DNA from: Marsupella aquatica
Taxonomy: Eukaryota > Plantae > Marchantiophyta
Assembly (NCBI GenBank): GCA_973895155.1
Contig: OZ316893.1
Coordinates: 11,796,359-11,860,358, forward strand
Direction: 5' to 3'
Length of the DNA stretch: 64,000 bases
Shown here: in pieces, positions 4,095 through 60,428 of the stretch
Numbering within the stretch: position 1 is the stretch's first letter
Layout of the letters: every line of letters begins with the position of its first letter
Notes under the pieces: model-generated
Told to the model about the DNA's origin: nothing
The model's database searches: none
What the model saw: the letters and a program-made list of their open reading frames with translations, nothing else
Program-made: the position numbers and the translations under genes

Positions 4095-4345
4095 TACACA
4101 GTAGTTCCACCATTTACGCATAGTAGTTTTACAAACTAGATGCATAGTAATTCCACCAACTACGCATAGTAGTTGCACCAATTACGCATAGTATTTTCAC
4201 CAACTACGCATAGTAGTTGTACCAATTACGTATAGTAGTTTCACCAACTACACATAGTAGTTGCACCAATTACGTATAGTAGTTCCACCAATTACGCGTA
4301 ATAATTCCACCAACTACGCACGATAGTTCCACCAACTATGAATAG
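4095..4345 (+). repeat. 22-bp tandem minisatellite (TAGTAGTTCCACCAACTACGCA consensus, ~11 copies)
   Basis: Head-to-tail degenerate units with no unique spacers, followed by a TATA-bearing LTR-like segment at ~4340-4475. Confidence 0.9.
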
Positions 4346-5444
4346 TACTAGCACACTTATAGGTGCTTGATGCTTGCCACTTGGCTTCCATCCAAGGGTC
4401 AAGGCATCGATCCATGCCCTCTTGGAAAACACAAAGGGGCACTATAAATAAAGTGAAGAGGAGCACACTCTCCTCATTCGCATTTATTTGATCTATCGTG
4501 TTGGACTCGCAACACTGTAAGGAACTCTTCCCCTCTTGTGCACATGTCTTGTTTATTATTTACCTCCATGCTTGGGTACTAACTTGATTGTTAGCCTTAG
4601 AACTATTTTATATTTTATGTTTATTAGTCTTGAGATCAATTTAGTGTGCTTGTAATAAATAATATGATAAATGGAGTACCTAGAGTTTATCCTCCACCTG
4701 CTGTGCCATTTGTCAATCCTTTCTTAATTAGAATTCATTGTCTTAGCAAGCATACCATGAGAATGCATCTTCTTTATCATTTTGGGTTTGAGTTAATGGA
4801 AACAGTTATGAATAGCGATGCACCATTTGTATACCCGATTGTTGTTTATGGAAATGAATGGAATGTAACTATTTTTATTTTATATTAGATGGATTTTAAT
4901 AGACAATCCGTAAATATACCGGAGTTAGATTTGAATAGGCTTCCTAATAATGTGTCTGATTTTCCTTCATCTATTGACATTAGAGTGGTATGCCGTAAGA
5001 AGGTTGATTGTAGAGATGTTTTAGTTAGAAAGTATGGAGATGAAAGATACAATGTTATGCTTAGGATGCCAGAGCCTGTGATTATATCATCTATGGTAAA
5101 TCTTAAGATCATAGTCTTTGTTTTCTATAATTGACTTATCTAATTGTAGGATTCGTTGGAAATTGCAATCTATGACTTGACTTGGGAAGTAAGTTATGTG
5201 GAAAGAGGATAGGCTGATTCGAGGCTTAGTGTGAGGAAGCCGCTCATCATAGAGTGGGACAGAGGCTGTGAGAGATATTTTAGAGGATAACGGTGAGAGA
5301 AATTGATCGACAAAGGGGATCGCAAGGGTAATGTGAGGTGAGAAAAGACGTATTTTGGAAAGGTTTCTTCCAAGATAGGAAAAACAAGAGCTCGGTGCTT
5401 CCCAAGAACTAAAGATTCCCCCGACAGCGCCCAGGCATGTGGGT

Positions 5445-5545: not shown

Positions 5546-8500
5546 AAGGGCAAGCCAAAGTCGTGGGCCACGGCGGTCGCGACACAAAGGGAAAGCGCCA
5601 AATGCAAACGACAATATATTCCCAACGGGAAGTCCGTTGGAGGATTTCTTGGGTGCATTGGAAAATTCTCAAGGAGGGCTACATCCTATAGAGCTCAGCT
5701 GGGTCTAGGGATGCCATAAGTTCTTGGGGTTTGTAGGGGGCTATCTTGCCCACTTGCCAAATCCTATCCAAATAGCAGCCAAGCCGCGGTTAGTCTCTAA
5801 ATGGAGCTTACATTGGGGAGGCAAGGCCAAGTAGGCATGAAGGTTGAGTTCCAAGGGCACTTGGTTCCTAGACCATCAGTGGGGCAAGAACCGGGAGTTG
5901 GTTGCTAGAGTTTGGGCCATTCTGGTCCCGGTGTCCCTAAAACTAATGATTCTGCGAGTTCCCCAGTATGGTCGCCACTTATGTCCGGGGACCAGTTTAA
6001 AGCGGTATAAAAGAAGACTTTTAATGTTTTAGGGACTCAGATTTATCATAGTATTTTCTTAGGTTGGTTTAGTTTTCTTAATCCTAATCAGTTTCCATTT
6101 TTAATACGAAATTATACTAAATTATTCTTACTTTTAAAACGCTAAGCCTTCACTTTCAACTAAATTCAACTCATCATTTTCTTCTCCACATCAACCAAGC
6201 ATTTTAATCATAATAGCATCTCATTATTACCATCACAACAAAAGAATCCAAACTCATCATTTCATTTCATTTATTCTCAAAATATGAAGTTTGGGTTTGG
6301 GTTTACAAAAGTGTTTTTTTGGTGGCTCATCTCCTAACTCAGGTCTCCTCACTAAACTTAGCTCAGATCTTCAGGTCAGGTCTTGGCTTCAAGCTCATCG
6401 ATGGTTTCCCCCAAGCATGTTGGACACAATTTTAGTCTCCGCCGAGCTTCCTTCATGTCATCGTTCCTCTTACACTCTTCTTCTTGACCCTTCTTCTTTC
6501 TCTCCTCGAGTTTCCAGTCCCACAACAAAAAAAACTTACGGCCGCTATCCTCGTACCCCATGGCAGCGGACTATCCCTAGCCTAAAGATAGACCCAATCA
6601 CCGGGTTTGACTCGTCGAATGTAGTCAACTTCCTTATCTTAAATTCACAACACAACATCAAATATAAGATGGTCTGGGTGATCCATAATTCAAGTTGGAA
6701 TTTTTTAATTAACTCCATGAACGGCTCATACTTTCCCTTCTTTGACCTCATACTTTAAGTCAAAACCAGTTCCTTCCGAATGCCACAATAGTCTCATGTC
6801 CCTTCGCCCAGCTTTGATTTCTTGTTGGGATCATTCATGCAATTACAAGGATCTTCTTAGCACCACCACTTCTCGTTCAATTGTCTTCTCAAAGGTCCTC
6901 AAGTTCACGAGCGAATACCCACCTCCTTTCTTTTCCCGTGAGCTTTCACACAAAAATAAAACCTGCTCTCGGCTGTAAACCCCTTTTCTTCCTTATCTCT
7001 TCCTGTGCAGCCTTAGCTTTTCTCCACTTTGACGTTTGCCTTGTTTATCCTCCATCGTCACAACTCATTCACATTTTACGACATTCTCTGAAGACCTTCC
7101 CCGATCGCGCATACTCATTCACATCTCCATCTTTCCTTAATACTCCAAGTCATTTGGTTTCAATTCTTATCAAAGGGAATTTACAGTTTGACATCTGTCA
7201 CCCAAAAATCTCCATTTAAGCTCTTTTCATTCAGCAGCATGTCACTTCATCAATATCTTCTCAAAAATCTCACACGTCATTATATCAACGATCGGCCGTT
7301 ACTCTCACTTATCATCAGGGCTCGGGGGGTTAACTAAGTGTATATTTTGGGGTACCACGTGAAATCCTAGCCTAATATAAATAGACCTATTTTATAAAGA
7401 AAATATTCCAAGAATATTCTCTATTTTCAATATTAATAACCTATTTTACTTTATAAAGGGTATATATTAAAGAATATTCTATAAACACAAGTTTATAATA
7501 CCTTCTTTTGCCTCCAACGCTTTTTAAAAATTTAGTTAAAATCTGTCAAAAATACCTATTTTGGATCGCACGTGGTTCCTAAGATTTTTGATAGTCAACC
7601 CCCCGAGCATCAGGGTCACCATGGCTTCAACCTTCTCGAGCATCTTCAGCTTTCTTCCAACTCAACGCTCGTCTGGTTTATCCTCTGCCATCATAACTCG
7701 CTCTCGTAATTCAAATGTTTCCCTGAAGGCTCTCTTCGATCACGTTTACCACACTTAAGTGCAAAGCACCGGCAAAAATTTGTGTCTGTCCCTACTACTC
7801 CTCGTGTCGTAGCCCAAATTCTTTTTCAATCTTTAGCTTTTCCCTCCTTCACTCAAAAAAAAAATCTCCATAACAACCATGATCTTCTTGTTATCCCTTT
7901 CTCTAACCACAGCATCTCCTCTCCCTCATCTCAATCTTTTGAAAGTCCTTATCCCACAGCAATCACCATCTGCAACTTCACTCTCTTCACTCTAATTTTA
8001 ATCGCTCGGCTCAGCCTTCCCCTGGAAATCCAAGACCTCTACACAACATCCACCTTCCGTTGAATCTCATCCCTTTTTTTTCCAAGCTCTCAAGCGCGCC
8101 TCATTTCCCATTTCTCTGTCTTCATGTCTCACTCCGCTCCTCAAAATGTGCTTCCGTCCTTCAGTCTTTCTTCTTCTCCTTCTTTTTCTCTTGCAGCGGA
8201 TAGAAGTTGGTCGGTGCCCAAAACAAGTTTATCAAAACCAGCAGACCAAATCGAGTGAGTGATGTGCGTATCAAGCACGACTGGAATCTCATCAGGCCTC
8301 CTCAATTCTTTGCTTCTGCTCACAAGCTTTCCCCGTTCAATGAATTCCTTGGTCCCTGATCCTCTCGAAAATGCTTATCTACGCCCGGTCGTCACCTTGT
8401 TTCCATTCAATTTCCCTCATGATCTTTCCATCCGCTCCAACTTGCTTCCTTTAAATTTCTTTCAGCTTCCCGCCCTCCCATCGCTCATCTCCCCTTCTTT

Positions 8501-9779: not shown

Positions 9780-10150
9780 GGTTTTTGCATCAAACCCCTA
9801 ATACACAAGGGTAGCACTTGCTACATCATAACATGGTAATCATGAGTTTTCATGTACTACCAAGTTTTTTGTCCTTCACATGCTTTTTGAAGGCACCAAC
9901 ATAGTTTGAGGGCACTCTCAAAGAACTTAATCTTGCAAGAAAAATCTTTCACTCTAAATCTGAGCAAACATAAGGTGCTTGAACTTCAAGAGTAAATTAG
10001 CCTTGTTTGGATGAGGTTATAACCAAAGTTATGGCCTTAAGCCTTTTTCTTCAAGATCCAATATCACTCCCCCTGTGTCTTTCTCACCCGAATTTTTTTT
10101 AGTAAACTCTCACAGACATTATTCTCAATGTGCATCAAATCCACATTTGT
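9780..10150 (-). pseudogene. CACTA/En-Spm transposase (Tnp2/TnpD) remnant, downstream exon
   Basis: The minus strand encodes VDLMHIENNVCESLL and MKTHDYHVMM*QVLPLCIRGLM, matching the conserved CACTA motifs DxMHIEKN and KSHDCH. Confidence 0.8.
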
Positions 10151-12429
10151 TTTTGCTTGGATCAAATTCTTGCAAGTCAGATCACAACACAATATTCAGT
10201 ATATGCTTGGTTATCATAACCAGGAACTTAAAATACAAAGGTGGAATGAGCTGAAGACAGACCTCCCTCGGGGTAATTGGATTCTTGGCGGAGATTTTAA
10301 CATGAAGAAAATGAGAGAAGATTCGATGGGTATCTCCCCTATGACCAGGGGAGGAGAAGTGAAACTATGGAGATTCTTGAAGGTCAGGCTTGACTTGGCT
10401 GATGCATTTTTAATCAAAGAGGAAGCTTCTGGAGCTCGATTCATGTGGAGGCGATGCAAGAATAATGTGATGGTGCAGTCTAGACTCGACAGATTTTACA
10501 TCAGCAAAAAGGGGGAGTGGCTAGGAAAGCTGACGGAATTGATACATGATGGAGGCTCAGCCCTCTCGGATCATGATCCAGTGATTTTAACCCTTCAATT
10601 AGGTAATGCGGACGGTGGTTTCACACACTCACGGGTGGTGTGGTTAAAGCAAATCCAGCGATGGTTGGAAAAGAGGAAACTTGGAAGAGCTAGAAGCAGC
10701 ATGGCAACAAGGTAAAGGAGAGTGCTCCAAACCCTTGCTAGATTTTGATAAGGCTAATTATAGTCTGAGGAAGGATGTACAGGCAGAAGCAAAGTTCCCC
10801 TAAAGATCAAGAGCAGGATCGAGAGGAAAAAATGTTAATGCTTCGCAACCAACTACGTGCGCTTAAAATAATTATATTAGAGGAGGCAGTTTTTAGTGAA
10901 TACATCAATGTGGAGGACCATCTACACGCGGCTGAATTGGAAGAGGCGCACATTGGGAGGCGTCTGGCCAAAATAAAGTGGTTAGGAGAAGGTGAGGAGC
11001 CGACCAAAGTTTACTTTGCAACGGTGAAAGCAAAGCACTGCAGAGAAGCAATGAAATCTCTGATTATTGAGGGGGGGATCGAGATCACGGACCCTAGGCT
11101 GATTCTATAAGAAGTTGTTCAGTAGTGTAAGCAGCTATACGCCCCTGTTGCCCCTACTGTGGCTGAACGCGGGGAGATGGTGTGTGCTCACAAAACGTTG
11201 CTAGCACACACCAGACACTATCGACTACGGACTTAACAAAGATGGAAAATCTCCCAGAATGCAAAGAAATCAAGGAGACTCTGTGGATGCTATCACCAGA
11301 CAAGACACCAAGTCCGAACGGGATGACAGGTGAAGTATACAGAGCATGTTGGGACTTCATTCATGAGGACCTGACTGCTATGATACATGTATTATGGCTG
11401 ACGGGCGAATTGGATTAAGGATGGGATCATTAAATTTATCCCTAAGAAGCCAGATAAACGGTTCTTGAAGGATTGGCGTCCTCTCACAATGTTGAATACA
11501 GTCTACAAACTCATAGCTAAGATCCTAGCCGCTTGGCTGAAGGCTGTCTTACCTAAGATGATAAATGCGCAACAGGCAGTGTTTATCCCTAGGCGAAACA
11601 TTCTGGAAAATATATCTCTTGCTTGGTTAATGTGTGATTGGGTGAAGAATAGGAAAGTAGAATCATTATTTCTCAAACTAGACTTTGAGAAGGCATTTGA
11701 TAGGGTCAACCATGACTACATGTGGCCCGAGACAATGCATTTACTGGGGATCAGTAGTCATTTTATTAAGTTAGTTCAAGCGCTACTTACAGAGGCCAGC
11801 TCACGAGCACTTGTGAATGGTCTGCTATCAAAATCAATTGGGTTGAACCGTGGTGTCAGGCAAGGATGTCCATTGTCTCCACTACTCTTTGTAATATCAA
11901 CTCAACCTCTAATGGACCTGATGGAGCCAGAGCTGCTAGCAGGGAGGTTACTAGGAATCAAGATCTCCAAGGAATTAATAATCTGTTGTAGATTTTTTGT
12001 GGACGACTTAGGTATGTTTATCCCTACAATAGAGAGGAGCTTTCATATGGCCAAAACAGTTCTGACTTGCTACAAAACTACCACAGGAGCCAATTGAACC
12101 TGAAAAAATTGGTGGTGATCCCACTAGCAATTTTGTCTATCCCACGCTGGCTGACAAATACAGGCTGTATAGCTAGCAAAAAAGGAGAGATGCAGAAATA
12201 TCTAGGTGCACCTCTGGGGCTGGATCTGAGAACAGATCAACATCGCAGGTCTATTTTGGACAAGATAGACGCAAGTCTCTCATCTTGGGCTAACAAATTG
12301 TTGTCATTTTTTGGAAGGGTTCTACTGGTTCGCCACATACTCTAGGCAATTCCAATTTATCACTCAATGTTTCTAAAAGCCTTAGAGGGGTTGGCGAAGA
12401 AACTGATTGCACTATGCAGGGATTTCCTA

Positions 12430-12760
12430 TGTCACACCATTCTAGGTAGTGTTAGAGTGTATCGTACTATCTAGATCCGTATGTTTGGTATGTGTGCTAT
12501 ATGACCCGATAAGGTTCCGTTAGGTTTGTGTGAGAGGGTACTTCTCACTTGTGAGGCATTGAAAGATAATCTTTCAATGTTGAGCCTTGGAGAGAGAGGA
12601 GCTTGAGTGTGGCTATGGTGGCTGTGAGCTCCGCTTGTGTAACGTGGATTCCTTGAGTAGTGCAAGGTGCGTTGGCTTGACATACGTGTGTGATTGGATC
12701 GGTGCGGGATCGATGGGGTATTGTTGACCAGGATTGTTGTGCCAATTGTTGAGGAGATTA
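12430..12760 (+). repeat. Terminal repeat A1 (331 bp)
   Basis: Same length as A2 (21435-21765), 12 mismatches by manual alignment. Confidence 0.95.
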
Positions 12761-12771
12761 CATTGAAAGAT
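12760..12771 (+). promoter_or_regulatory. Putative self-priming primer-binding site
   Basis: ACATTGAAAGAT, immediately after A1, is the exact reverse complement of ATCTTTCAATGT (12569-12580) inside A. No TGG-type tRNA PBS at this position. Confidence 0.7.
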
Positions 12772-14023
12772 CAGATGTGAACTTTGCTATGCGGACTGTG
12801 CAAACAAAAGTTTGTATGTGTTGATTGAGTTGGCGACGGTTTGGGGAAATCATTGTGTGGATCCGTGGTAGCTCGGATCGTATTGAATAGATCGTTGGCA
12901 TCTTGGTTGGTTGCTGGTAACGGATCTGAAGTGGGAGATCCAAGTTCTGAAGTTCTGCTGTTGATGGTTTTTGGACAGAGTTCTCAAGCAGATCGGTGGT
13001 GCCCTCCGATCATTGTGAAGCCTTTGATAAGCTGATTGGGTGATTATTGTGAGCTCTTTGATAAGGATTTGTGCGTGTAGTGGGCTGCTCTGTAGATCTG
13101 AATCTGCATATCAATTGGTCGATGTTTGTTCCATTTTTCGGGAAGAAAGAAAAGAGCTTTCGACAATTTTTGGGTTCCTGCTGGTCGACAACTTTTCATG
13201 AAGGAAATCAGCAGTTTTTGGGAGCTTTTCGTGAAAGAAGTAGTCATTTTTGGGGTCAGGTGTGAGGCACGCGAGGTCACCTATCCCGAAAGTGCTCCCA
13301 ACCACAAGCGCGAAGTCATCCATCGTGAGCGCAGGTAGGCGCGAGGTCGAGGTCACCCATCCCGGGGCTATTATGGGCCGTGAGCGCGAGGGGAGGCACG
13401 AGGGCTATTCCAAGTCGCGAGCGCAAGGCGAAGCGCAAGGTCACCCATCTTGGGGCTATTCTCAGCCGCAAGCGCTTAACTGGCAAGTTCTCATCCCACC
13501 TTATGTACACACAAGTTTTCACAACTTGTTGTTTAGATTCAAGTGCCAGAGGGCTTTATACACTTTCCGGTTTGCTTAGAGCCTTGTTTCGGGCCAAATT
13601 AGAGGTTCTTTAGAGAGGTTTTTGATAGTTTTGAGTTCATCTAAATACACAGATTGAACCAATTCTGCATGGTTTCTCATCTATAACATTGGGACATCAT
13701 GAAGCCTATTATGAAGGCCTTTCATTGAATATTATGAAGATTTGTTTGATCAATGTGTGATCACTCTTGGTGTGGAGAGTTAGTGTTTGACTATTCTTGT
13801 TGATTGGATCCTCTCCACACTTGTTTCCTGTTTATGCGCCATGTTGGTTTGGTATGGGCGCTTGATTCCATAGGAGTGATCCGGGTTTGCAAACGGACAT
13901 TCTAGTGTGCTGTGTATTTCTCTCCTAGTGATGTTGGAGTGATGCCCAACACACCATGGTGAGTGCTTGTGGTGCTGACAGGGACAGATTGCCCTTAGGG
14001 TTAGCACATAGATTAGATTAGGG

Positions 14024-15260
14024 TTGGTCACCACGGATTCTTCTGGTGCTGCTGGGTTACCTGATGGACGACGGACCGGTTTCACTCGGAGTGGGGCACA
14101 ATTTCGGCCAGCGGCATTGGTAGCAGTCAACAATGCAGCTTTAGATAGTGATTCCGATGAGGACTCAGTCACCAGTTCTCCTCATCATCAGGTGGTTGCA
14201 CCTTTGTTGTGGGATATGGACGAGATGTACGGGGCTACAAAGGGCCCACGACGATACTCTGGTGCAGTTGGCACAATTGATCTGGATGACTTCATCCAGG
14301 AGTTTGATACGTGGTGCGATATGCAGACACTGCATAACGCCACATTATTTACCCCTTTCATGGCATGGAAAGGATTATTTCAGCATTTGGAGGGGCCACC
14401 CATGGATGACTACCATGAGTTTGGGAAGGCTCATTTAGTTGAGATTGAGGCATGGAGGCAACATTGATCGCCTAATTATGTGTCCATCACCTATGGCACT
14501 AGTGCGGCTGCCCAACCCATTGCCACAGCTGCTGCTTCTTCTAGCAGCACTAGCCAGAGTGGCACACCATCCACCAGCAACACTCAAGCAGCATCCACCG
14601 CTACTCCTGCCGGTGTGATTGTGACAGGAACTGGAGTTGCGCCAGCATTTAACCCTGTGGTGGAATTCTTTGAGGTACTGAAGCAGAACTATCAGGGTGT
14701 GAGAACTGATAAGTTGAAGGGTCTCCAGGAGTTTCAGCGCAAGACTGGAGAGAGTCTACGCGAGGCATACACTCGTATGCGCAGATTGATCACCGTCACC
14801 AAGGGAGTGACAGAGGCTCAGGCAGTCCAGTTTTGGTATGCAATTCTGGGCAGAGAATTGTGACGCAGAGTGAGAGATGTCACCCTGCTTAGGGATGCAG
14901 ATCCCACATTGGCAATTGTTTTTACCCTTTCTAAGCATATTGAGCTCAATATGGTGAATGAGAAGGTGGTGACTTCTGGATTTTCCAAGGAAGCACCAAA
15001 GGCTGCATCTATATCCACACCACAGCCTACTGCACGGAAGAGCCAGAGGGAGAAGCCTACTGCACGAGAGTCTACCAGCCAGAGACTTGTGCCCTCTTAT
15101 GTTGGACAGCAGTCAGGATGTTGGACTTGTGGTGGGGATCATGCACAGAGATATTGCCCAGATCATAGAGGATCAGGGGGAGCATCAGCGCCTAATCAGC
15201 GATAGTGTGATCACTGTGGAGCTCCTGGACACACCAAGGATAGGTGTTTCTCACTCCACC
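14024..15260 (+). pseudogene. Gag region of the retroelement polyprotein, with two zinc knuckles
   Basis: DLDDFIQEFDTWC and FQRKTGESLREAYTRMRRL (retrotransposon gag-like). Knuckles CWTCGGDHAQRYC and CDHCGAPGHTKDRC. In-frame stops; true start not resolved. Confidence 0.85.
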
Positions 15261-16099
15261 CTGAGTTACGGAGAGGAGGATCACGTACACATGATCAGGG
15301 AAGAGGAGGAGGAGGTAGAGGTGGTGGACATGGTCGTGGCATGCCACATGCAGGGAGACAGGGAGGTGACGTTGCCCTTGTTGTAACCATAGATCCAAAG
15401 GATGCTAAAATTGCTCAATTGGAGCAACAACTAGCTGCCATGGCTAGTTCCCAGGTGAGACCTAATTCTGGTGATGGGGCATCTACATCCTATGGACCTT
15501 CCACATCCCATGGTCCTTCCACATCTTATGGAGCTGATGGAGACCTTGCCACCATGGGATTCATGTGTGGCACTGCACATATTGATGCATCAGCAGCGTT
15601 GACACGTGGGGCAGCCAAAGCTCTTGAGCCCCGAGGAGCAGTAGTGGAGTTAAATCCACAGAGGGGGGATGCACATCGGCAGACAAAGCTTCCTCAATCT
15701 TTTACATTGTCAGAGATAGTTCAGACTCCCTCTATGAACCTGGTTCGGACAAACCCTTATGTGGGTAAGTTGGCAGAATCAGGTAGTGATGCAGTAGGGA
15801 TGACAGGTACCCTGCTGGGGGCGGCTACTGCCATGGTACACACCCCATTATTTTCAGCGACAGACATGCTGAACTTGGGAGTTGGTCCTGTAGAAGTGTT
15901 CAGATTGGCAGCTACACTCTATGAGGACACTCCAGTGGTTGCTTCCCATGTAGAAGCAGCTTGCAGTGTTGAAGCAGTGAAGATCATGCCACCTACTGCT
16001 ACTAGTGAGACATGGCATGCAGCAGCAGCAAGGTTGGTGGATTTACCAGCACGCCCTCCATTTGAGAGGACTAGGTTTAATCCTAGAATTGTGTCATTG

Positions 16100-16500
16100 G
16101 ATAATCAAAGTGGTATCTTCCGATTAGTTGGGCCTTCTAGGGCAGTATACCAGCCAGAGAGAGTGTTATTGGATACTGGTGCTCAGCCCTTGATGTTGGG
16201 TAAGTCTGCCATATGTGGATTGGGATTGCGTCCAGAGGATTTGGAGGATTGTCCCTTTCCCATTCAGACTTCATTGGGGGGACCTACACCTACATAGCAC
16301 ATTACCAGGAGACCTCTTGATTTAAGGATTCAGGAAGGTCATACCACAGATAGCTCACAAATACAGGCGCGAGCTATTCTGACTAAGGCAGAGTCATATG
16401 ATGTGTTGGTGGGATGTACAGTGCTCTACCCCATGGGATTTATTCTTGATTTTTGGGAGGAATCAGTGTCATACAGACCTGATTGGCAGTCAAGAGATGC
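16100..16500 (+). pseudogene. Aspartic protease domain
   Basis: VLLDTGAQPLMLG (DTG at ~16172) and downstream YDVLVG, in the same frame as gag. Confidence 0.85.
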
Positions 16501-16879
16501 TCGATTGAGCAAATTTCCAGTGAGATTTAGTGGACCTGTGGGAGGCCCTAAATCCACACCATTGTCTTTGGCAACATTCAGTGGTCTAATTGCTGGACCT
16601 GATGATTTGATTGAGGGTAATGCGCATTCAGCAGATGTTCCACCCTTGGAGGAGTCTCATGAGGAGCACATCATGTGAGGATTACCTGTTGGCAGTGTTG
16701 TGCCACCAGTGTGGGGCACTGCACAGGCCTTGCCACAGGCAACAGCACGATTGGTACATGATGCATGGCGTCATGCTTGTACACCATAGTCAGGACCAGA
16801 GCAGTCTCTTGCAGATGGACCTGTGACTCTTTCACCATTGGATACCACTCCTATTGCTTGGCAATATCCACTGGAGGGT

Positions 16880-17830
16880 ATTTGTTTGTTGGATCTTTTT
16901 GGTGGGATTAGCACTAGATTGGCTGCTGTTCTTCAGACAAGAATTCTTGTGCGTCGTTATTTGTATGTGGAGACAGATGAGACAGCACGGAGGGTCTCAT
17001 TGTGACATGTGGCTATGTTGGTGGATAGATATCCACAATTGCTGCCAGTGAATGCTGTTCGTGGTTATCAGCACTAGTTACCTGCTGATATTTCATTGCT
17101 GGGGGCGGATCATCTACATCGTGTTGGCCCCATTGATTTGGTGATTGCTGGTTGGCCATGTTAGGGCCAATCTAGAGCTGGCATTGGGCATGGACTTCAT
17201 GATCCACGCTCTGCACTATTTTGGGAGATGTTACGGGTGCTACATCATCTCCAGCTACATCAAATACAGTCTCCAACATACATTTTGGAGAATGTGCCAT
17301 TGTTAGGTGATGATCGTAGTCGGATTGTTGCTAGTGTTCACCAGGTGAGGTCTTGGATTGGACCTGTTGTGTTATTGGATGCTGCACGTGTGGGTTCTCG
17401 TGCACATCGTCCACACTTGTGGTGGACCAATTTGATCCCATATGAGGTGCTGAAGCGCGCATCTGACAGCATTCCACGCTCACCAGCCTTAGTGGTGGAT
17501 GATATTTTGGATCCAGGGCGTCGTGCACAGGGTGTGACCCAACCTGATAGACCTCCATTGGTAGTGGTCAATGCAGTTGGGCGCCCACGTTGTGCATTAC
17601 CCATTCTTGTAAGCCACTCTGCTTCATATGCATTCAGAGAAGGTGGCCCTGGACTTGTGTGGGACACAGCTCTCCAACAGTTAGTGGAGTCTACTGCTGA
17701 TGAGAGAGAGCGTGCTATGGGATTTTTGACTGGCACCACTGCAGTTGCCTCTGTGTCAGAGGGTTTGCGGCGCCAGGTTCTTGGTCAAGCAATGGATCTG
17801 AATTGTTTGACTTGGATTATCAGCTTGGGA
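16880..17830 (+). pseudogene. DNA (cytosine-5) methyltransferase domain, DNMT3-like, inside the polyprotein
   Basis: Motif I LDLFGGI, II YVETD, IV DLVIAGWPC*GQSRAG (catalytic Cys 17159-17161), VI YILENV, VIII DAARVGSRAHRPHLWWTN, IX ERERAMGF, X RRQVLGQAMDL. Canonical order, same frame as gag, PR and RT; three premature stops. Confidence 0.92.
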
Positions 17831-18043
17831 GTAGCTGAACAGTTGCGGATGCACTCTGCTAGAATTACTGATTGTCCCTTGGTGAGCTTGCGGTCCACTG
17901 AGACAGTACTGACCACAGTTGGGGGCGAGCAGACCTATGGACCTATGGCTGGACAGATTGTTGAGTAGGAAGGGACTGCTCAATCTACTACTAAATAGCA
18001 AACATCAACTATCTCTTCTACCCTACAAAGAGATATTAGGGAT

Positions 18044-19593
18044 TTGGTGGAGAGTTGGGAACCACAGCTTGGCCCTAAGTTGACAGGGAAGGAGAGACGT
18101 CGCATGCATCGATTCCTAAAGAGTTATTGGAATTGTTTTGCATTTAGCATGAAGGATTTGGGGACATTAAAGGGTCCTGGTATTCAGATTGAATTGGCTA
18201 GTGATGCGCCAATCTTTCATAGGCCATACCATTACAGTGACATGGAGAGAGCTCTGATTCAAAGTAGAACTCAAGATTTGTTGGAGGCTGGATTGGTGGA
18301 GATTTCATATGGGAAGTATGCATCTGCCATAGTGATGTCAGCCAAGAAGGATGTGCATGGCAATTACACAGATAGGCGCATGTATGGTGATTATAGACCC
18401 ATTAATCGCCAGACAAAATCTGATAGATATGCCATGCCCACACCTGAGGAGATCTTTGATGCTGTGGGGCATGCAAAGGTTTTTAGTTCATTGGATCTAA
18501 GGGCAGGGTACCATCAGCTTCCAATTAGGCATGCTGACAGGTCCAAGACAACATTCTGGGGGATTGATTCTTATAGCAAAGATCGTTTGTATCAATGGTT
18601 ATTCTTACCATTTGGATTGAAGAATGCACCAGCTGAGTTCCAGAGAGTCATGGATCGAATCCTTGCAGGTTTGGATTTTGTCAGATGTTATATTGATGAT
18701 ATTTTGGTTTATTCTTCTACTGTGGAAGAACATCAGCAGCACTTGCAGATTGTGTTGGAGAGATTGAGAGCACATGGGTTGAAGCTCCATCCTAGCAAGT
18801 GTAAGTTCTTCCAAGACCAGATTGAGTATTTGGGCCACACTATATACCCAGGGGGATTGGGTGTACAGCAAACTAAAGTGGAGGCCATTACAGAGATTCC
18901 TTGTCCTACTGATGTGAGTAGAGTTCGTGCATTCTTGGGATTGGCGAGCTACTACAGGAGGTATGTTAAAAGATTTAGCGAGCTTGTTAAACCTTTGACC
19001 ATACTCACTAAGTTGGATCAGAAATGGATTTGGGCTGATGACCAGGAGCATGCCTTTCAGGAGTTGAAGCAAAGGTTGGCATCATCCCCTATTTTGAGAA
19101 GACCCATTTCAGGCAGACCATTTCAGCCACACACTGATTGGAGTGGAGTAGGACTTGGAGCAGTGCTGACTCAGAAGGATGATGAGGGGAATGAGTTTGT
19201 TGTGGCTTATGCCAATAGATCAACAATTCAGCAGAGGCTAAGTATAGCTCTTATGAGGGAGAATGTTTGGCAGCAGTGTGGGTTGTTGCACATTTTCGTT
19301 GCTACTTGTTTGGTAACCCCTTCACCTTGATCACTGATCATCAGCCTCTTAAGTGGTTAATGGAGTCTGACAAGCTTATAGGGAAGCTTGCACGATGGGC
19401 ATTGTTGTTACAGGAGTATGATTTCCAGGTGGTACATAGGCCTGGGAAAGTGAACTTGGATGCAGATGGATTAAGCCGCAATCCATGTACTAGTCAGCAG
19501 GATGAGACTGGAGCCAGATGGCATGATGAGTCAGATAAGGAGATGGTGCCAGGATGGCATGCATCTGCCTTTCTTTGTTGGGTGCCAGCATAA
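18044..19593 (+). pseudogene. Ty3/gypsy reverse transcriptase and RNase H
   Basis: DYRPIN, LDLRAGYHQ, LPFGLKNAP, YIDD; RNase H TDWS, EGECLA, TDHQPL. One frameshift near 19220. Confidence 0.95.
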
Positions 19594-19602
19594 AGTGGAT
19601 TT

Positions 19603-20945
19603 GTGGACTCTACCTCATTGGATGGAGTGGATGAGGAGTCTTCAGATGTGGATGTTGGTGAGGTAACTTCTGGACAACAAGATATTCAAAATGATGTGAG
19701 AGTGTTGGAATATCTGCGTAGTGGTTCTATTGTTGGCAGTGTTGATGCCAACGAACGTGACAGGGTTCTACAAAGAGCCAAGAGGTTTCGATGGGAGAGA
19801 AACCATCTTTTGAGAGTACTGCATGATGGCAGGGTGTTGGTGGTACCAAAACCATCACAACGAGTCCATTTGGTGCGACATGCACACGAGGAGTTGGGGC
19901 ACCTTGGTGTGAAGCGCACTTATAGCTTGTTGCAGACACAGTATTGGTGGCGTGGTATGCACACTCATGTCCAGCAGTTGATAGCTAAGTGTGTGGTAGG
20001 TGATAGAGTGAGAGCATCATTTAATGCTCCCACTCCCTAGTTGCACCCGTTGCCGATCATGGGTTTGGGATATCGTTGGAGTTTGGATTTTGCTGGTCCA
20101 TTACCTCTTACCCAACGTCATAATCAGTATATTTTGGTCATGGTGGAGCACTTCTCCAAGTGGATTGAGCTAGTGGCATTGCCAGATAAAGCCAGTGGAG
20201 GAGTTGCTGCTACATTTTTGGATCGTGTACTTAGTCATTTTGGAGCACCAGCTGAGGTATTGACTGATCAGGGAACTGAGTTCCGTGGAGAGTTTGAGAA
20301 TTTGTGTGAGCAAGCTCTGATTGATCATTGTACTACCTCTCATGATCATCCTGAGGCAGATGGATTAGCTGAGAGAGTTGTGCAAACTATGAAGAGAGGA
20401 TTGCGTAAGTATGGCTTGCAGGTTGGTCATTTGGGAGATTGGGATCTCCAGCTACCTTGGTTAGCTATGGGCTACCGTTTCAGTCGGCAAACATCACTTG
20501 CATCTTTCCACCTTACTTTTTGCTCTATGGTAGAGAGCCAGATTTGCCAGCAGCTATTCGTCGTGATGTTGCACCAATTGTGAACTTGGATGATCCTGAT
20601 GTTTGGGCCAAGGTGTGTTCAGAGAGAGCACAGGTATTTCAGAGAGTGATATCCATGGCTTTTGACAACCTTGCCATTGCCCAACATCATGATACTTTGA
20701 GGTATGCCACTATTCATGGAGGAGGTTACCGTGCAAGCATTCGACGATTTCATCTTGGTGATTATGTTTATTTGCAGCAGACAGCACCCACGACACTTGA
20801 TGTGACCGCAAACCGGACAATCTTACGTGTGCATGAAGTGTTGCCTTCTGGTGTCTTGATGTTGGAGGGACGCGATGGTATGGTTTGGAAGGATTATGTG
20901 CGCAACTGTGCACCATGTCACCTCCCAACATTGATGGTACAATAG
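19603..20945 (+). pseudogene. DDE integrase (HHCC zinc finger, rve core and C-terminal region)
   Basis: HEELGHLG...WWRGM...CVVG (last Cys lost); WSLDFAGP, LTDQGTEF, DGLAER. Frameshifts near 20510 and 20930. Confidence 0.93.
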
Positions 20946-20980
20946 ATCCAAGCTTGGCACATGTTCGTGCTGGCTTGAAA

Positions 20981-21121
20981 TGTATGTTGTGTGGATCTGC
21001 TCAGGGAGCAACTACTATGTTGATTTGTGATAAGTGTTCTAGAGGATGGCACATGTCATGTTTGACACCACCATTGCAGGTGATTCCTAGTGGATCATGG
21101 TTGTGTCCTCAGTGTCGGTGA
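20981..21121 (+). pseudogene. C-terminal PHD finger of the integrase
   Basis: CMLC...MLICDKCSRGWHMSCLTPPLQVIPSGSWLCPQC is a C4HC3 PHD pattern, followed by the stop. Confidence 0.9.
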
Positions 21122-21285
21122 AGCCAACTAGTTATCATTTGTGTTCTCTTGGCAGATATGGATTGCAGGTAGGTGATCGATGGGGCTCACTTGCATCCGG
21201 CCTCTTGATCTTCACACCTAAAAAGGTGTATATCAACCTTGTAGAACTCATGGCTAGCTAGAGTTAGGGGACCTTACTTCCAGCT

Positions 21286-21295
21286 AGGGGGGCGA
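21286..21295 (+). promoter_or_regulatory. Polypurine tract
   Basis: AGGGGGGCGA immediately before repeat B1. Confidence 0.75.
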
Positions 21296-21432
21296 TTGTG
21301 GGTTTTGGACATATGTGGACATGAGTTCCACTTGTATTCCATTCTCTTGTGTTTGTGATGTGGCAGTGTGACTATGTCTGGATGTATATGACAAGCGATG
21401 TATGTTATGTAGTGATGTGTATGCACACGACA
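21296..21432 (+). repeat. Repeat B1 (137 bp)
   Basis: Matches B2 (21766-21902), 11 mismatches by eye; ends ...CACGACA. Confidence 0.95.
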
Positions 21433-21434
21433 AC

Positions 21435-21765
21435 TATCACACCATTCTAGGTACTGGTAGAGTGTATCATACTATCTAGATCCGTATATTTGGTATGTGT
21501 GCTATATGACCCGATAAGGTTCCGTTAGGTTTGTGTGAGAGGGTACTTCTCACTTGTGAGGCATTGAAAGGTCATCTTTCAATGTTGAGCCTTGGAGAGA
21601 GAGGAGCTTGAGTGTGGCTATGGTGGCTGTGAGCTCCGCTTGTGTAACGTGGATTCCTTGAGTAGTGCAAGGTGCGTTGGCTTGACATACGTGTGTGATC
21701 GGATCGGTGCGGGATCAATGGGGTATTGTTGACCGGGATCGTTGTGCCGATTGTTGAGGAGATTA
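21435..21765 (+). repeat. Repeat A2 (331 bp)
   Basis: Copy of 12430-12760, separated from B1 by the dinucleotide AC. Confidence 0.95.
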
Positions 21766-21902
21766 TTGTGGGTTTTGGACATGTGTGGACATGAGTTCCA
21801 CTTGTATTCCATTCTCTTGTGTTTGTGATGTGGCAGTGTGACTATGTTTTGATATATGTGACAAGCGATGTATGTTGTGTAGCAATGTGTATGCGCATGA
21901 TA
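21766..21902 (+). repeat. Terminal repeat B2 (137 bp)
   Basis: Copy of B1, abutting A2 and followed by the TSD CCTA. Confidence 0.95.
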
Positions 21903-22747
21903 CCTATGGGGGTACAATTCGGAGGGAGGAAAACATGTTCCACTGGTTCCTTGGGCTAGGTTGGCTAGACCCAGAGTTGAAGGTGGATTGGGGCTAAAAG
22001 TCATTCAGACGCGCTTTTGTCTCAATGGTTTACTGGGGCTTTAGACTCCCCCAATACTGAATGGGCAAGGTTGTTTGCTGAAAATCTGAGGCTGGTTAGC
22101 TGGGTGAACTTTAAGGTGATCCAAAGGAATCAATATTTTTTCCAAGACAAAATGTTATTATGTTGTCCTTGTTCATTCAATGGATTAGCTTACCTTGGTG
22201 GGCTGTGGAAAGCTTGGATCCAACTCTGGGCACACTTGATCTTTTTGACTACCACTGTTATGCCCGGTAGATGGATAGTAAATGATGCTCTCCGTTGCTT
22301 AAAGGGACTACAGGCCTGGCCTAACGAGGACTATGCAGTGGTTACAAGACTATGTGGTAGGATGGATATCCGTTGCATTCAGGACTTATGGTCTGGGGAC
22401 TCTCATGAATAGCGCAACATGGAAGCCAAATTGGAGCAGACAGAGGGTTCACCCGGAGAGAGAAGAGCTGCTGCAGAGATTTTTTGAGGAAGATCAGGGA
22501 AACTAAAAGTTGCAACAAGAATGTTGCCCCCGGATTGCGATGTTGGTGTTGGGCCGACTGTCCTGATGGCCTAAAAGCATTTAGGATCAACAATCGGCGG
22601 GCTTATATCCTTCTACACCCCTCTATAGGAGATCATGGTAAACTGAATTATACATGGAGCAGTCACAAAACTGACGTGGAATGGAACTCTCTATGGACAG
22701 GACTGTGATGTTCAGACTTATCATCTCGGGCTAAGACATTTATCTGG

Positions 22748-23258
22748 GGGTAGCGAGGATCATCAATTATCAACCACCCCCTAGATAAACATTTTTTATC
22801 AGCCACCCCCCAGATAAGCGAATTTTTTTGAATCTCAGTTGAGCAGCTAAGATGACGACTTTGCACTTCCACGCATCTCACCTAGGCAGCTGAGATTGAC
22901 TCAATCTCAGCTGACCTCGCCGAGATTGGCGTGCGGACAAAAAAAATGAGAAAAAAATTATTTTCTTGAAAAATTCAAAACAAAAAAGAATTTGAGAAAA
23001 AAATCGACAAAATTTGGTGTCCGTACCGTATGGACATCTGGCCATCTCGGCTGGCCCCGCCGAGAAGTGACGTCCGTACGGTACGGATACCCATAGTGAA
23101 AAAAATTTCAAAAATTTTTTTTTTTTATTCATCAAATTTTGAGAAAAAAAAATTAAAAAAAAAATTCGCATTTTTTTCGGCTCTGCATCTTGGCGGTCTC
23201 TCTGAGATGATGTGACAACTGATGAAAACGACTCATAACTGATGATGTAATTTTACTC
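22748..23258 (+). mobile_element. ~510-bp Mutator-like MITE inserted in the LINE
   Basis: 9-bp TSD TTTATCTGG/TTTATCTAG. Removing it restores LINE TFIWRVLISGLFT. Imperfect TIRs GGGTAGCGAGGATCATCAATTAT / ATAACTGATGATGTAATTTTACTC. Confidence 0.8.
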
Positions 23259-24089
23259 TTTATCTAGAGGGTCCTGATATCAGGGCTGTTCACAAGTGTG
23301 AGAGCAGTTCGCATCGGCAAGGGAGAGGGTCACTGCAAGTTGTGCACCGGGGTTATTGAAACCATCCCCCATCTTTTTGCTTAATGTGCATGTCAAGAGA
23401 TACTGGGCTATGGGCTCCGGTTGCTTTCAAGGCACCTTTGTGGACTATTCTGAAAAGTTATTGGAGATGGAGGACTTGATTGTGAGAAAAGACACTTACA
23501 AGGTGGCAAAATTATTCATTTTAATACCCAGATGTTTCAACCAAATGGTTACAGGAGATTTGATCTGAGATTTATCCTCTCAAAAGCTGTAGACTATGTG
23601 ACAGCGATTGATCTGTGTTTGTCTCCGGGGAGATAACACTAGATTGCTTCGAGTAAAAGAGTTCATTAATATATCAGGAAAGAGTTGCCTGGGTGCATAG
23701 ACATAATGTGTGGATTACCTCTGGTTGATACCAGATTTGATGTATAGGTCTTCTGTTAGATGGGTATTTTGGATGAAGCACCCGCTTTATGATTTGGGAT
23801 ACCTGTTAAAGGTCACTTGGGGAGTTTAGATAGTGATTAGCGATCCGTCTGGGTGTTGCTTGGTGCTGGTTTTTTTTTTAATAGGCTGTTGTTATGGTTT
23901 TGTGTTGGGCTTGATTATTTCCCCCGACCATGGGGTTTTCGTGGCCCATATGTTATTAAAGGAAAAAAAAATTCAAGGAAAATATAAATGTCATATAGTG
24001 GTTATCATAACCATGAATTAAAAATACAAATATATAGTTTTTCCGGAAAATTTAAGCTGCTATAACAAACTCAAAAATGCAATCTCAAA

Positions 24090-27099: not shown

Positions 27100-27830
27100 T
27101 CTTGTAGTCGTGCGATCCTCTATTGTACTGAGAGGACTGCGTGACATTGTATCGGCATTGTGGTGGATCACTCCTGATCAATGAATGATATCAAAAGTGT
27201 ACTCCTGCAAGATCAATACCCGCCTAGCTAGTTTACCGATCAATTTGTTGTTGGTCATCAACCATTTAAGTGATTGATGATCTGTGAACAACATAATTTT
27301 TTTACCATACATATATGATTGGTAGAAAATATACCACAGCCCATATCACAGCAAGTAGCTCTCCTTCATAAGATGAGTTGTTACTATGTGAAGCATAGGC
27401 ATTGAAATTCTTAACATGTGTACGATAATAGTTGCATAGATCTAAAAAGATGCATAGTTTATTGACATATGTAGGTGTTTTTATATTGTTGATGGTCAGA
27501 ACCTTGACCTCATCTGGCATGAGTCCATCAAAAATCACTCGGTGTTCCAGATAGATCACACTGTTCACCCCGAATTCACATTTCTTGGGGTAACATTTGA
27601 AATTAGTTTTTGTGAGTCTTTTGAACAGGTCTTTCAAATCATCCATGTGTTTGTCAAATGAAGGGTTGTGTACTATGACATTATCAATATAACATTCGAT
27701 GTGTGCTGCAATTTTCTTCACTATATCCATAACTTTTTGAAAAAAGATGGCTGCATTCTCATAACTTGTCACTGCCATGAAATGCAGTCTTCTTTCTGTC
27801 CTTGTGACAGAGCCAATGGCCCCAAAGAAT
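27100..27830 (-). pseudogene. Gypsy RT/RNase H remnant, internally deleted
   Basis: CYIDNVIVH, KCYPKKCEFG, SSYEGELLAVIWAV, DHQSLKWLMTNNKLIGKLAR. Confidence 0.85.
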
Positions 27831-30800
27831 GCTTTTAAAGGGTAGTGGTAACACACACATGTAAATAAATAGATTTGTGTCAAGTTTTTTTTGCTTTTGT
27901 TCTATTACAACCTTGCCGAAGATAATTTATGCGCAATATAGATGAGGTGAGTGTTGATATTTTTTCATGTCCTCTTGATTTTAATTATCGGCCAAGCCTT
28001 GGATAAAGAAGGGGTTGGTCACTGGCCGATGCAGGACAAGGCATGTGTCCTAATGCCTTTCCATGTAGGAGTCGGATGATTTCCTATCTTTTTAATTTTT
28101 TTAAGTGACCCTAGTATTAGCATAATGGGAGCCGGGTCAAAAGGCGTGAGTGGCCAAACGCCACTTTTGGGACCGGTCAGCAAGAGTTAGGGAAGGAAAA
28201 ATAAAAGAGACCCAACCAAGGAACGGCCCAACCAGCAACGAGCGGCTCGAGCCAATAACAAGGCGGCCTAGATAAAAAGCCAGCCAAGGAGGAGTAGAGT
28301 CGACCTGGGAGTGCCAAGGCTCGAAGAGTGAACCGATGTCCGCGTGATCGTATTTTATGGTAAAAGCATGTTGGCTCTTATGAGTCGACCTTGTATGTCC
28401 ATAAATTCTATAGTAAAACCAAAATGATAACTCTTGTAAGAAGGGTAGTGGGTATTAAGAAAAGTTCAGGTGAAACTAATATATTATTAAATTTTACTTT
28501 ATCATATTTGTTGATCAACACCTCTCAAAAACTAATTTTTTTACGACATATCATCATAATATTTCAAGAGAAAATAAAATAGGAATGTCATCTGACTCCT
28601 ATTTAGATCCATGACTTCAATAGAGGACAAAGATAATGCATTCTCACTCCTCTCAGTAAGACACTACTGGGTATACTATTGCCTTATTAGAACTCATAAC
28701 AACAATTGTAATTATTCCAAACAAATTCAATTGTAATATTCCAAACAGATTACATAAATTAATAACTTATCCCATTCCAATGAATGATGATTCTATAAAG
28801 TTTGTATACTTATTCTGTAATTTGATTGTGAAAATAGTCATTCTTGCGAAGAGATCACAGAGGCCAAAGGTGAAAGTAAAAGGGCTTTGAAAGAATCAAA
28901 TGCTGTTACTTTGTCCTGCTCGATTAGCGAATAAAAAAAAACTTGTCTCTGCCCTGCTTCGGCCAGCATCGTCATCAGCCACGGGTAAGCCCGACGGTCC
29001 AAGCCAAACCTTCTCTTCCACCGGGGCGGGGAGAGCTGAAGCTTAGAAAGGCCCTTGTTCTTTGCCTTACATAGCTAAAGGCCCTCTACCCCATTCATAA
29101 ATCCAAACGTACAAATGGTTCATCGGTTTCACCGAATGCTCGAAATTGGATGCTCTTGGGCATCTTCACGCAATTTTCAGGTGCTTTAGATACCGTTTAA
29201 TATTTATGTGTCCTTTCGGTGAAGTAGCTATTAGAGATTTGAAAAACAATTGGTTATCCATAAATTATATCTTTCTTTTTTCGCAAAACCGGTAGATAGT
29301 TATATATTTGTTTTTCATTCATATATATATTTTTCAAAAGAAGTGTGCATTACAAAGAACCCTCTCAGCCGGCGAAGTGCACGGAAATCTACAAGCCATT
29401 TATGGTCCCGGCTCCTCGTCCGGACCTAGTTCTAAGCTATCTCTCGACACACCTCGAGATTACTCCCGACGCATATCCAGGTTGGGTAGGACAGAGGGTT
29501 ATGTCCTGTGGTGCCATTCAAATCCGAACAATTTTAGGGGGTGCGATCGAGCCTTACGATTGACGAGGTTTATATACATTCGCTTACATTACCTCTATCA
29601 GCTAACCCTACCCCCAAGGCTTCAAGTGCCAATGGTTAATTGCTGGTTGACAAGGACCGAAAGAGTCTCCGATTCGTCGGTACAGAACCTCATCTTAAAT
29701 ACAAGAGAACTGACAGTTTAATCGTTTCGTTTTGACCCCTTTGCTATGATTTTTTGGTTCATGCAAGAGCCCATCCCTATTTAACCATGCGAGCATAACC
29801 AAGTTGAACAAATCACACACTTTTTAATGGCATTATAAAAAAAATTCTACGATCGGTTGAAACCGGAAAAATCATATCAACGAGTGAGCGCGCTTGTTTG
29901 ATGCCCTCCTGCATGCTCCATTAGCAATCCCTCGTTCCCCGAGCTAGAAGTTCTATGGCTCGTCTTGTGAGTCTACCAGAGGTATCTCACTCAGTCTGGC
30001 TGGGAAATGGCCCAGCTATTACGTCGCTAGGGTTGACTCCAGGATTGCGGACTCCGATACGCGCCTGGATGACATGATAAAATTTGAAAAAACTATTGCC
30101 AGATTATAATTTACTTAGTATCGACTATAATATGCGCATACATATATTAACAGGTGTGGATGAAATCACTCCAATTTGTTCGGTAGTCGGTATATTCTCA
30201 TCGGCCGGCTGGTGGAAAGAGAAACTTGGGAACAAAAAAAATAACCGAAGCGATAGCTATCGCCCATCGGCTCTTTGACCTGACTTTTTTAGGAGCTTAA
30301 CGACTTTTTTAGGAGCTTAACGCTAATCCGAAATCACCTATGCGATTTATGAGCATAGCTTTAATAACCGCTTTATTCGCTTGAATGCACGTAAACCAAG
30401 AATTTATCAATAAATATGATGCGAGTCCAACCCCCATCAATCATGCAAATGTGAACCAATTTTTTTATCAATTGTTTTTGTTTACCATTTAAGCCCCGGA
30501 TATAGCCCAAATTGTTTGAACAATTGTATGTGCTTGCCTCGTCCATGATAAGGATAACTTTCTTCCCTCTCTTCCATCGCCAACCCTCTTGGGTCTGGTA
30601 TCTTTGTTTCGTGCGTACTACTCGGCGTCCGATAGCAATGTGTGTATTCTTAACGATAGGCCGATTAATGATGCCCGATATAAAGCATCATCACATTATC
30701 CTCCTCGAAGGGAAAGCCCGAGGGGGGCATGTGCTCCTTTGATAGTCTGCAAAAAAGAGGGGATGGGGTCTATAGACAATGGTAGGATCGGGGGTAGGTG

Positions 30801-37100: not shown

Positions 37101-37669
37101 TGGGACCTTAGAATGGGAAATCCACTGACTGTATTAAAGGAGCATTCTGGAGAGGTGAAGAGGGTGGCATTCTCTCCTTTTGGCAAGTTGCTTGCCACCA
37201 CATCGGGTGATACAACTGTCAGGCTGTACAATACTTCCACTTTTGACTGTGTTCACGTTTTAAGGTACAAAGACGAGATCTTTTTGAATGCCTTTGTCCG
37301 TTGTTCACAGATTGTGAGACTAGCAACAGATTCTTATTGTCTAGTGCTCAATACTTTTCTGAATTGCCCATGAGGTTTCAAACAAACTTAAGCCTGCGTC
37401 CTTGTTTTACTGCATTGGTTAAGCGTAATGATATATGGACCGTATGTAATCCCAGCTGACTATGCATGCATTTAACCCCAGCTGACTATGCCGAATGTGT
37501 TGCAAGCAGCTCACACAGCGATCACGTGTTTGATGCTGCATGGTCTCCCACTGCCGACTTCCTGGTCACTGCTAGCCATGACAGACTCTGGAAACTTTGG
37601 CAACCGAAAGCACAGGCAGTACGCAATCTATCTATGGGCACTAATGGCAACAGATCGAGAGTAAATTAA
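34145..37669 (+). CDS. RING-HC finger / coiled-coil / WD40-repeat protein (probable E3 ligase); exons 34145-34413, 35354-36260, 36466-36576, 36888-37264, 37510-37669
   Basis: CKIC..PCGHVFCAPC..CPVC; heptad region LERAKLKVQVAKLEKLKGDL; about seven GH...WD repeats. GT-AG junctions have compatible phases. Confidence 0.9.
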
Positions 37670-60156: not shown

Positions 60157-60428
60157 TATAGTAGCTATTGAATCGCTGATGAGTAAGGATAGGACTTCTT
60201 CCCCGGTGCAATTGCAAGAAACACCTTTGGGGATGGGGCAGAGTGTGGATGGCTCGACTGAGCTGCAGGACTCCTCGCTGCTAATAGTAGATTCACATAT
60301 GGAGGAGACCGGAGAGATAGCCATTGGCACACCAAGGCGCCGCAAGGGGGGGAGTGTGAGCTTGGCTACCTCTTCGGGTGGGCGAATGCGGATTTAGCTC
60401 ATGGGTGTTGGAGCCGGGGACAGAGGGG

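Follow-up and report, generated by a model that had tools for sequence, protein, structure and literature searches.

How elements with split direct repeats prime reverse transcription, copy themselves and regenerate their ends has so far been left to models. A copy of such an element lies in the window, as we call the whole 64,000-nucleotide stretch of Marsupella aquatica DNA analysed here, and the preliminary description of this DNA had read in it a tRNA-independent self-primer accompanied by a hairpin. The primer, the primer-binding site (PBS), the purine tract and both repeat junctions can be placed to the exact base and covary, which opens each step to testing with short RNAs and oligonucleotides. 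The account that we consider probable as a whole is that of a self-priming module in a split-repeat Ty3/gypsy element, combined with an upstream arm that would mask the 3' copy of the primer.

A split-repeat Ty3/gypsy element inside a LINE

The element is a decayed Ty3/gypsy retroelement of 9.5 kb (12430-21902, all features on the forward strand), with reading frames broken by stops and frameshifts and with repeats in the split order A1-ORFs-B1-A2-B2. It is flanked by a 4-bp target-site duplication (TSD), CCTA, at 12426-12429 on the left and at 21903-21906 on the right. The insertion site is ORF2 of a host LINE, whose frame reads ...CRDFL before the element and continues as WGYNSEGG... after it; this L1-type LINE is split by the element into 10041-12429 and 21907-22412. 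Repeat A1 (330 bp, 12430-12759) begins with TGTCA, and contigs of the family show variable loose ends before 12430. Repeat B1 (138 bp, 21295-21432) finishes with CACGACA and directly follows a polypurine-tract-like run (21286-21294), and a G-run stands likewise directly 5' of B1 in the related subfamilies S1, S2 and S3 introduced below. Behind B1, a 2-nt spacer (21433-21434) leads into repeat A2 (21435-21764), which differs from A1 at 12 of 330 positions and carries its own hairpin (21560-21586) and primer copy (21574-21585). A2 joins repeat B2 (21765-21902), the right end of the element, without added bases, and B2 differs from B1 at 11 of 138 positions. Element ends in general start with TGTCA and finish with CACGACA, give or take transitions.

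Between the repeats, 14207-17968 encodes gag, zinc knuckles, a protease motif and a C5 DNA methyltransferase (PF00145, E 4e-9), with several in-frame stops. Reverse transcriptase (RT) and RNase H follow at 17999-19593, with a frameshift within RNase H, and a DDE integrase (H2C2 and rve) with a C-terminal PHD finger at 19594-21121, with one stop and frameshifts. The domain order is that of Ty3/gypsy, PR-RT-RH-INT with a DDE integrase, the protease being placed by motif only; its motif and the zinc knuckles were read from the translation, and neither has a Pfam match. At the integrase C-terminus, no chromodomain match was found in the window element or in its relative L067, the PHD finger being present instead. 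Similarly, the 12 element ORF pieces scanned gave no match to a tyrosine recombinase, and matched rve and H2C2 instead. The closest named proteins come from Calypogeia (RT, 77%), Marchantia and Sphagnum, and gag scores 42-59% to Marchantia and Sphagnum proteins. In Marchantia and Sphagnum, pieces of the family are annotated as hypothetical proteins of the host. The family is abundant, and LTR finders built around twin LTRs and a tRNA PBS would likely overlook it or annotate it wrongly.

We compared four subfamilies, namely that of the window (W), S1, S2 and S3. S1 and S2 were drawn from the best 80 of 243 loci of a gag-based metagenome scan; among these 80, A1 and the PBS could be aligned in 43 rows (35 S1, 8 S2), the remainder lacking the region, and grouping by flank reduced the loci to about 25 S1 and 5 S2 insertions. 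S3 is L067, a clade member with 63% RT identity from a genome-contig scan with 60 loci. It is evidently eukaryotic DNA within a bacterial (cyanobacterial) bin, and a collapsed circle assembly with one A and one B. Its RT-integrase-PHD frame is intact, and many other GTDB bins likewise contain eukaryotic retroelement contigs. Scans of viral contigs returned nothing, or distant RTs only (27-37% identity), which were left out of the analysis. Copies inside one subfamily are not independent, and the independent count is therefore that of four subfamilies plus one or two within-family changes.

Among the best 80 of 243 loci, at least six related insertions are complete A-ORFs-B-A-B elements (L138, L141, L162, L167, L192/193 and L205), and two identical terminal LTRs are absent from these and from the window element. 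Counting the window element and these six, drawn from the same best 80 of 243, the 4-bp TSD is perfect in six of the seven complete elements and has one mismatch in L138.

Complementarity between repeat A and the bases behind it

The 12 bases at 12760-12771, the putative PBS, are the exact reverse complement of 12569-12580 within A1 and of the A2 copy at 21574-21585, and the complementarity extends no further on either side. This bears out the central observation of the preliminary description, as does the position of the PBS directly after A1, which ends at 12759. Because the PBS starts at the first base past A1, a primer ending at 12580 would first copy the last base of A, in agreement with the earlier claim that extension begins exactly at the end of A. 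The 12-nt match exceeds chance: when mock repeat ends were placed at all window positions, 24 of about 63,600 reached at least 12 nt (3.8e-4, the true site counted), and none of 20,000 dinucleotide shuffles of A reached a 12-nt complementarity to the PBS.

The other subfamilies have the same arrangement in different letters. The A repeats of W, S1, S2 and S3 align no better than shuffles in any of the six pairs, and each of the four contains, inside its own A, a perfect 12-13-nt complement of the bases right after A. The primer segments are ATCTTTCAATGT in W, AGTTCTTTGAGT in S1, ACTTTTGGTGATT in S2 and ATCTTTGTCAAGT in S3, and they lie 125-191 nt from the PBS. Duplexes of a primer with its own PBS reach -13.1 to -16.3 kcal/mol, versus -0.7 to -7.0 for cross-subfamily pairs. 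Among the best 80 of 243 loci, at least 10 of 12 primer:PBS pairs are formed in 31 of 35 S1 loci and at least 11 of 13 in all eight S2 rows; the four S1 loci that fall below 10 pairs have deletions or a decayed PBS. Complementarity across subfamilies, by which self-priming had been proposed to be judged, is thus kept with different sequence in all four.

Compensating changes were also found within the window's family. Variants in the family contigs were listed for 12530-12620 at a 1% threshold, giving six variant rows. The PBS variant 12764 T>C, present in runs X2 and X4 and not in X1 or X5, was seen first; from it the primer change 12576 A>G was predicted, and then found. This change and 12560 T>C, its partner in the upstream arm of the hairpin, occur in all four runs. 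The only stem variants of the family at or above 1% are this one compensating set, in which arm (12560), primer (12576) and PBS (12764) vary at three positions and preserve both helices; the other variants at that level within 12530-12620 fall on two loop positions and on one base outside the stem. The three changes were not seen together on one contig, the contigs being too short to phase the PBS change with the others. In addition, L150 and L153 share two primer changes, and the PBS of L153 matches both while that of L150 matches one. The covariation that the preliminary description had looked for among family members is therefore present in the window family.

The predicted self-primer (12569-12580) would be the first 12 nt of the transcript. 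A pyrimidine-A step is the plant initiator pattern, and the first base of the primer is an A after a pyrimidine in all four subfamilies (in W, this holds for A2 and for the family, A1 having a private A there). A TATA-like box (TATAA/TATAG) lies at -31 in S1, -29 in S2 and -29 in S3, and there is no TATA at -30 in W. The pyrimidine-A step and the TATA spacing of the relatives make transcription from 12569 likely. As for the tRNA question, mature tRNAs end in CCA, and a PBS for a tRNA 3' end begins with TGG. No TGG occurs within -5 to +20 of the end of A in any of the four subfamilies, which agrees with the tRNA-independent priming proposed earlier. The stretch 12300-14100 has no Rfam match, neither to a ribozyme nor to a tRNA fragment. 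ARAGORN found no tRNA genes in the 64-kb window.

These data bear on two other explanations of the complementarity. Half-tRNA priming exists in Copia lineages (PMC6317226, in excerpt), and a host tRNA or half-tRNA might prime here too, with the self-complementarity serving as a structural leader stem; we consider this highly improbable, given the absence of TGG in all four subfamilies, the empty Rfam search of 12300-14100 and four unrelated PBSs that each follow their own A repeat and leave little room for half-tRNA priming. The chance that the complementarity is accidental, or a one-off duplication in the window copy, is negligible. One of the ten A1 stem pairs is indeed private to that copy, but the shuffles and the same geometry in three other subfamilies speak against such an origin, and the covariation refutes it. 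Tf1-like self-priming is, by contrast, very likely in view of the subfamily-specific primer/PBS pairs, the compensating set, the lack of TGG and the pyrimidine-A start with its TATA spacing.

A hairpin over the predicted primer

The upstream arm (12555-12566), a candidate mask for the primer, forms with it a hairpin at 12557-12579 that has 10 Watson-Crick pairs in A1 and 9 in A2, as expected from the 9-bp stem that had been reported as kept in A2. Two G.U pairs (12555-12556 with 12580-12581) further close the stem. Only the A1 copy has the tenth pair (12566 A) and the A at 12568; family contigs have G at 12566 and C/T at 12568, matching A2. Perfect stems of at least 9 bp are rare, with only five elsewhere in the 64 kb. 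A hairpin is predicted at the primer in all four subfamilies (-12.0, -13.9, -13.9 and -17.8 kcal/mol). Among local windows of 34-35 nt in A, it ranks first for stability in W, S2 and S3 and second of 256 in S1. The predicted stem takes up nearly the whole primer in W and S1, and the 3' half of the primer plus downstream bases in S2 and S3. Since the S2 and S3 arms pair with bases past the primer, the arm is not a stray copy of the PBS. In all four subfamilies the predicted hairpin spans the last base of the primer and the next base, and arm and primer pair best inside their own subfamily. 'Mask' therefore fits better than 'decoy', the term used in the preliminary description, as the primer 3' end is always covered.

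We modelled the fold in both repeat contexts. In W, S2 and S3, the predicted primer:PBS pairing is 0.00 with upstream starts versus 0.8-1.0 from +1. In S1 (L159), it is 0.79 despite upstream starts, that is, there is no switch, and the model pairs the last three bases of the primer elsewhere. Masking in read-through RNA, as previously suggested, is thus predicted for three of the four subfamilies but not for S1. In the 3' context, the arm holds the 3' part of the primer at 0.9 or more in five of the six copies folded, L067 being a collapsed assembly, and the hairpin fails in A2 of L162, a decayed copy. The companion suggestion, that the hairpin could hide the primer in the 3' copy, agrees with this prediction.

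From these elements we propose the following mechanism. Transcription would start at 12569, and the first 12 nt would fold onto the site just 3' of repeat A and, as in Tf1, would be cut free as the primer of reverse transcription; in Tf1/sushi elements this primer is the RNA's 5' end, set free by RNase H. In the 5' repeat, the arm lies upstream of the start and would not be transcribed, leaving the primer free. In A2, the 3' repeat, the RNA would contain both the arm and the primer copy, which are predicted to form the hairpin over the primer 3' end and at least one base beyond. Such a mask would stop the A2 primer copy from competing for the PBS, and would also stop it from being cut where the first strand transfer, that of strong-stop DNA, must land. 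Copying would otherwise obey LTR rules with B+A as the LTR, the minus strand starting from the end of A and the plus strand from the purine tract before B. Given self-priming, we consider it probable, with a comfortable degree of confidence, that the hairpin masks the spare primer in A2. A spare primer copy in the 3' repeat is a design problem common to all self-primers, to which the hairpin would be one solution.

Self-priming could also hold while the hairpin serves some other function. It might be a signal for 3'-end formation/polyadenylation or for pausing at the U3-R border, have a part in dimerisation or packaging, or, as a DNA hairpin, prevent the plus-strand copy of the PBS from folding back on its own repeat. 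The variation of hairpin registers between subfamilies would suit such a role, as would the S1 5' context, where the hairpin does not outcompete PBS pairing. We nevertheless judge it unlikely, because the primer 3' end is exactly covered in all four subfamilies and because the hairpin covaries with the primer, when a general structural signal need not follow one bond. It is also conceivable that the primer is the element's own sequence cut from a longer RNA, from an upstream start or from the A2 copy, with the hairpin marking the processing, and the window family, having no TATA at -30, would be compatible with this. The pyrimidine-A primer start in four subfamilies, the TATA-like boxes at -29 to -31 in three and the predicted unavailability of the primer with upstream starts in three of four make this origin very unlikely.

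At the depth of the S1 genomic copies, no excess conservation of the arm over the rest of A was seen: the S1 arm differs from the reference at 23 of 238 positions (0.097), versus 752 of 7,569 (0.099) for the rest of A. The corresponding values are 0.062 for the primer and 0.067 for the PBS. Separately, deletions of arm or primer occur in 5 of the roughly 25 S1 insertions (L133, L138 in both A copies, L154/155, L156 and L184), and the inverted repeat at the primer may be a deletion hot spot in DNA.

Repeat junctions and related elements

The internal B|A junction consists of both element ends and a 2-nt spacer, forming a near-palindromic CA-NN-TG in all nine junctions inspected (window 21426-21443, L067, L130, L138, L141, L162, L167, L192 and L206). 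It is likely the integrase site, with the window spacer at the centre of the predicted internal attachment site. Going by retroviral chemistry, staggered cutting behind each CA would produce 2-nt 5' overhangs, as on processed LTR ends. In W and S1, the A|B junction directly links the base preceding the PBS with the one following the purine tract; both S2 elements have a different first base. The bases that meet there are those at which an ordinary cDNA terminates if B+A is taken as the LTR. Read together, the junctions suggest end-to-end joining of an ordinary two-LTR cDNA and opening of the internal CA-NN-TG by integrase. The A-ORFs-B-A-B order would then arise by joining the end of A to the start of B, followed by integrase cutting at the internal site. 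We put joined-end integration forward tentatively, as a possibility somewhat short of probable.

Repeat copies and partial forms were compared with this scheme. A1 and A2, and B1 and B2, of one element share lineage letters, and S1 has no position-fixed difference between copies, as expected if both copies are made from one template each round; the S1 copies might alternatively be kept alike by gene conversion. Among the best 80 of 243 loci, at least five A-ORFs-B forms have perfect TSDs (L144, L153, L155, L181 and L187) and are nearly as common as complete ones; we take these loci to be one-LTR products or the outcome of B1-B2 recombination. Within the same best 80 of 243, none of 39 A1 copies has B upstream of it, so that the junction opening must be asymmetric. 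A symmetric model, in which a ligated two-LTR circle is opened at either junction, is disfavoured, as it predicts A-B-A-ORFs-B, seen in 0 of 39. At one rearranged locus (L137:15175-16076), a piece of A is inverted, and a further, 3' piece of A begins from primer base 12-13 inside a T run and keeps 10-12 nt of the PBS before B. The 3' piece resembles a fossil strong-stop product and, as a single copy, is suggestive only. As a separate observation, contig depth over the first 270 bp of A (window 12430-12710) is far above that at the PBS, this being summed depth and not copy number, and many relatives diverge after about 12700 of the window; solo or non-autonomous A forms are possible.

The closest parallel in architecture is KnitGypsy-Dnmt3 of Klebsormidium nitens (de Mendoza et al. 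2018, PMC5890265), which according to excerpts of that paper combines a Ty3/gypsy Pol, a C5 methyltransferase and A-coding-B-A-B repeats as in DIRS-order elements. The window element shares the C5 methyltransferase in a gypsy polyprotein (PF00145, in relatives too) and the A-coding-B-A-B repeats, but its closest named relatives are liverwort and Sphagnum proteins. Since no protein named KnitGypsy was recovered, the clade link is one of architecture. None of 55 methyltransferase relatives is a Klebsormidium-named match, and a Klebsormidium RT (P0050) falls in a neighbouring PHD-bearing group of the RT tree. The excerpts of PMC5890265 make no mention of a PBS, primer, target site or circular intermediate for KnitGypsy-Dnmt3, and a 2026 preprint (10.64898/2026.05.21.726589), likewise in excerpt, only names streptophyte Gypsy-DNMT3.

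Self-priming is known from elsewhere. Its mechanism is described, and shown, for Tf1 (PMC7175516), and among plant elements it is predicted for 12%, in Tcn1 and TAR (PMC7175516, PMC6317226). Tf1 and Tf2 of Schizosaccharomyces pombe and the Tf1/sushi group, including plant Tcn1, have an 11-13-nt complement to the PBS inside the repeat (PMC7175516, PMC4600332, PMC5341516, PMC6317226), and the excerpts of these four papers, on which all of these statements rest, make no mention of an upstream masking hairpin. The window PBS resembles theirs in being complementary to its own repeat, in adjoining the repeat end and in not being a tRNA PBS. Yet the excerpted Tf1/sushi elements have ordinary LTRs and a chromodomain, whereas the window element has split repeats, a PHD finger and a methyltransferase. 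The RT tree was built with FastTree and rooted at the midpoint, without a named Tf1 or Tcn1 row and without P0039, whose coverage was too short. In it, all seven split-repeat rows lie within one 99-supported group that is separate from the four chromo/SH3_Tf2 rows. Of the Tf1/sushi geometry claimed at the outset, the priming appears to work like that of Tf1, but the element, having neither a chromodomain nor twin LTRs, is not a Tf1/sushi chromovirus by the features tested.

Tyrosine-recombinase elements of the Ngaro/PAT/VIPER type have the order A-ORFs-B-A-B and an internal B|A junction made of the two element ends. The window element shares the layout and the junction, and differs in its DDE integrase, 4-bp TSDs, TG...CA ends, PBS and purine tract. 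Foamy virus integrase cleaves 2-LTR circle junctions (excerpts of PMC1180852), and we predict the same kind of reaction here, in which integrase produces processed ends from a palindromic junction. There, however, the junction consists of joined cDNA ends, whereas the one predicted here is internal to the LTR-equivalent and a heritable part of the genome. The 'conserved hairpin site' of fungal GalEa (PMC5445492, in excerpt) was considered as a parallel and set aside, being a distinct feature located behind the LTR.

A literature search with thin coverage of subscription papers, Repbase Reports and theses, and with the supplements of PMC6317226 and PMC5890265 outside its range, returned nothing on priming or masking in gypsy elements with split repeats. 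Self-priming and the split-repeat layout are each known from that literature, in which no account of the two together, of the mask or of the internal attachment site turned up. The family likely represents one more origin of tRNA-free priming in plants, beyond the known predictions for Tcn1 and TAR (PMC6317226, in excerpt), and it hints at an integrase whose usual substrate is an internal junction. A wider reading would have a bryophyte-wide gypsy lineage in which self-priming evolved apart from Tf1/sushi, an RNA switch gates the primer and integrase opens a built-in CA-NN-TG after cDNA end joining. We regard it as a serious possibility that we would not yet favour. If true, this would be a natural DDE retroelement that normally uses a circle junction as its substrate, and split direct repeats would need no tyrosine recombinase to be explained.

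The window contains further repeats and host sequence. A second LINE with DUF4283, endonuclease and RT lies at 59123-63337, and a third RT fragment at 27305-27901 on the minus strand. Short MITE-like elements at 22776-23272 and 7320-7608 have 14- and 17-bp terminal inverted repeats, and the former has internal hairpins at 22887-22913 and 23016-23091. Tandem arrays of 22-nt and roughly 32-nt units occupy 4099-4376 and 576-759, and pieces of host genes with WD40 repeats and a KH domain are found at 35310-37373 and 40749-41552.
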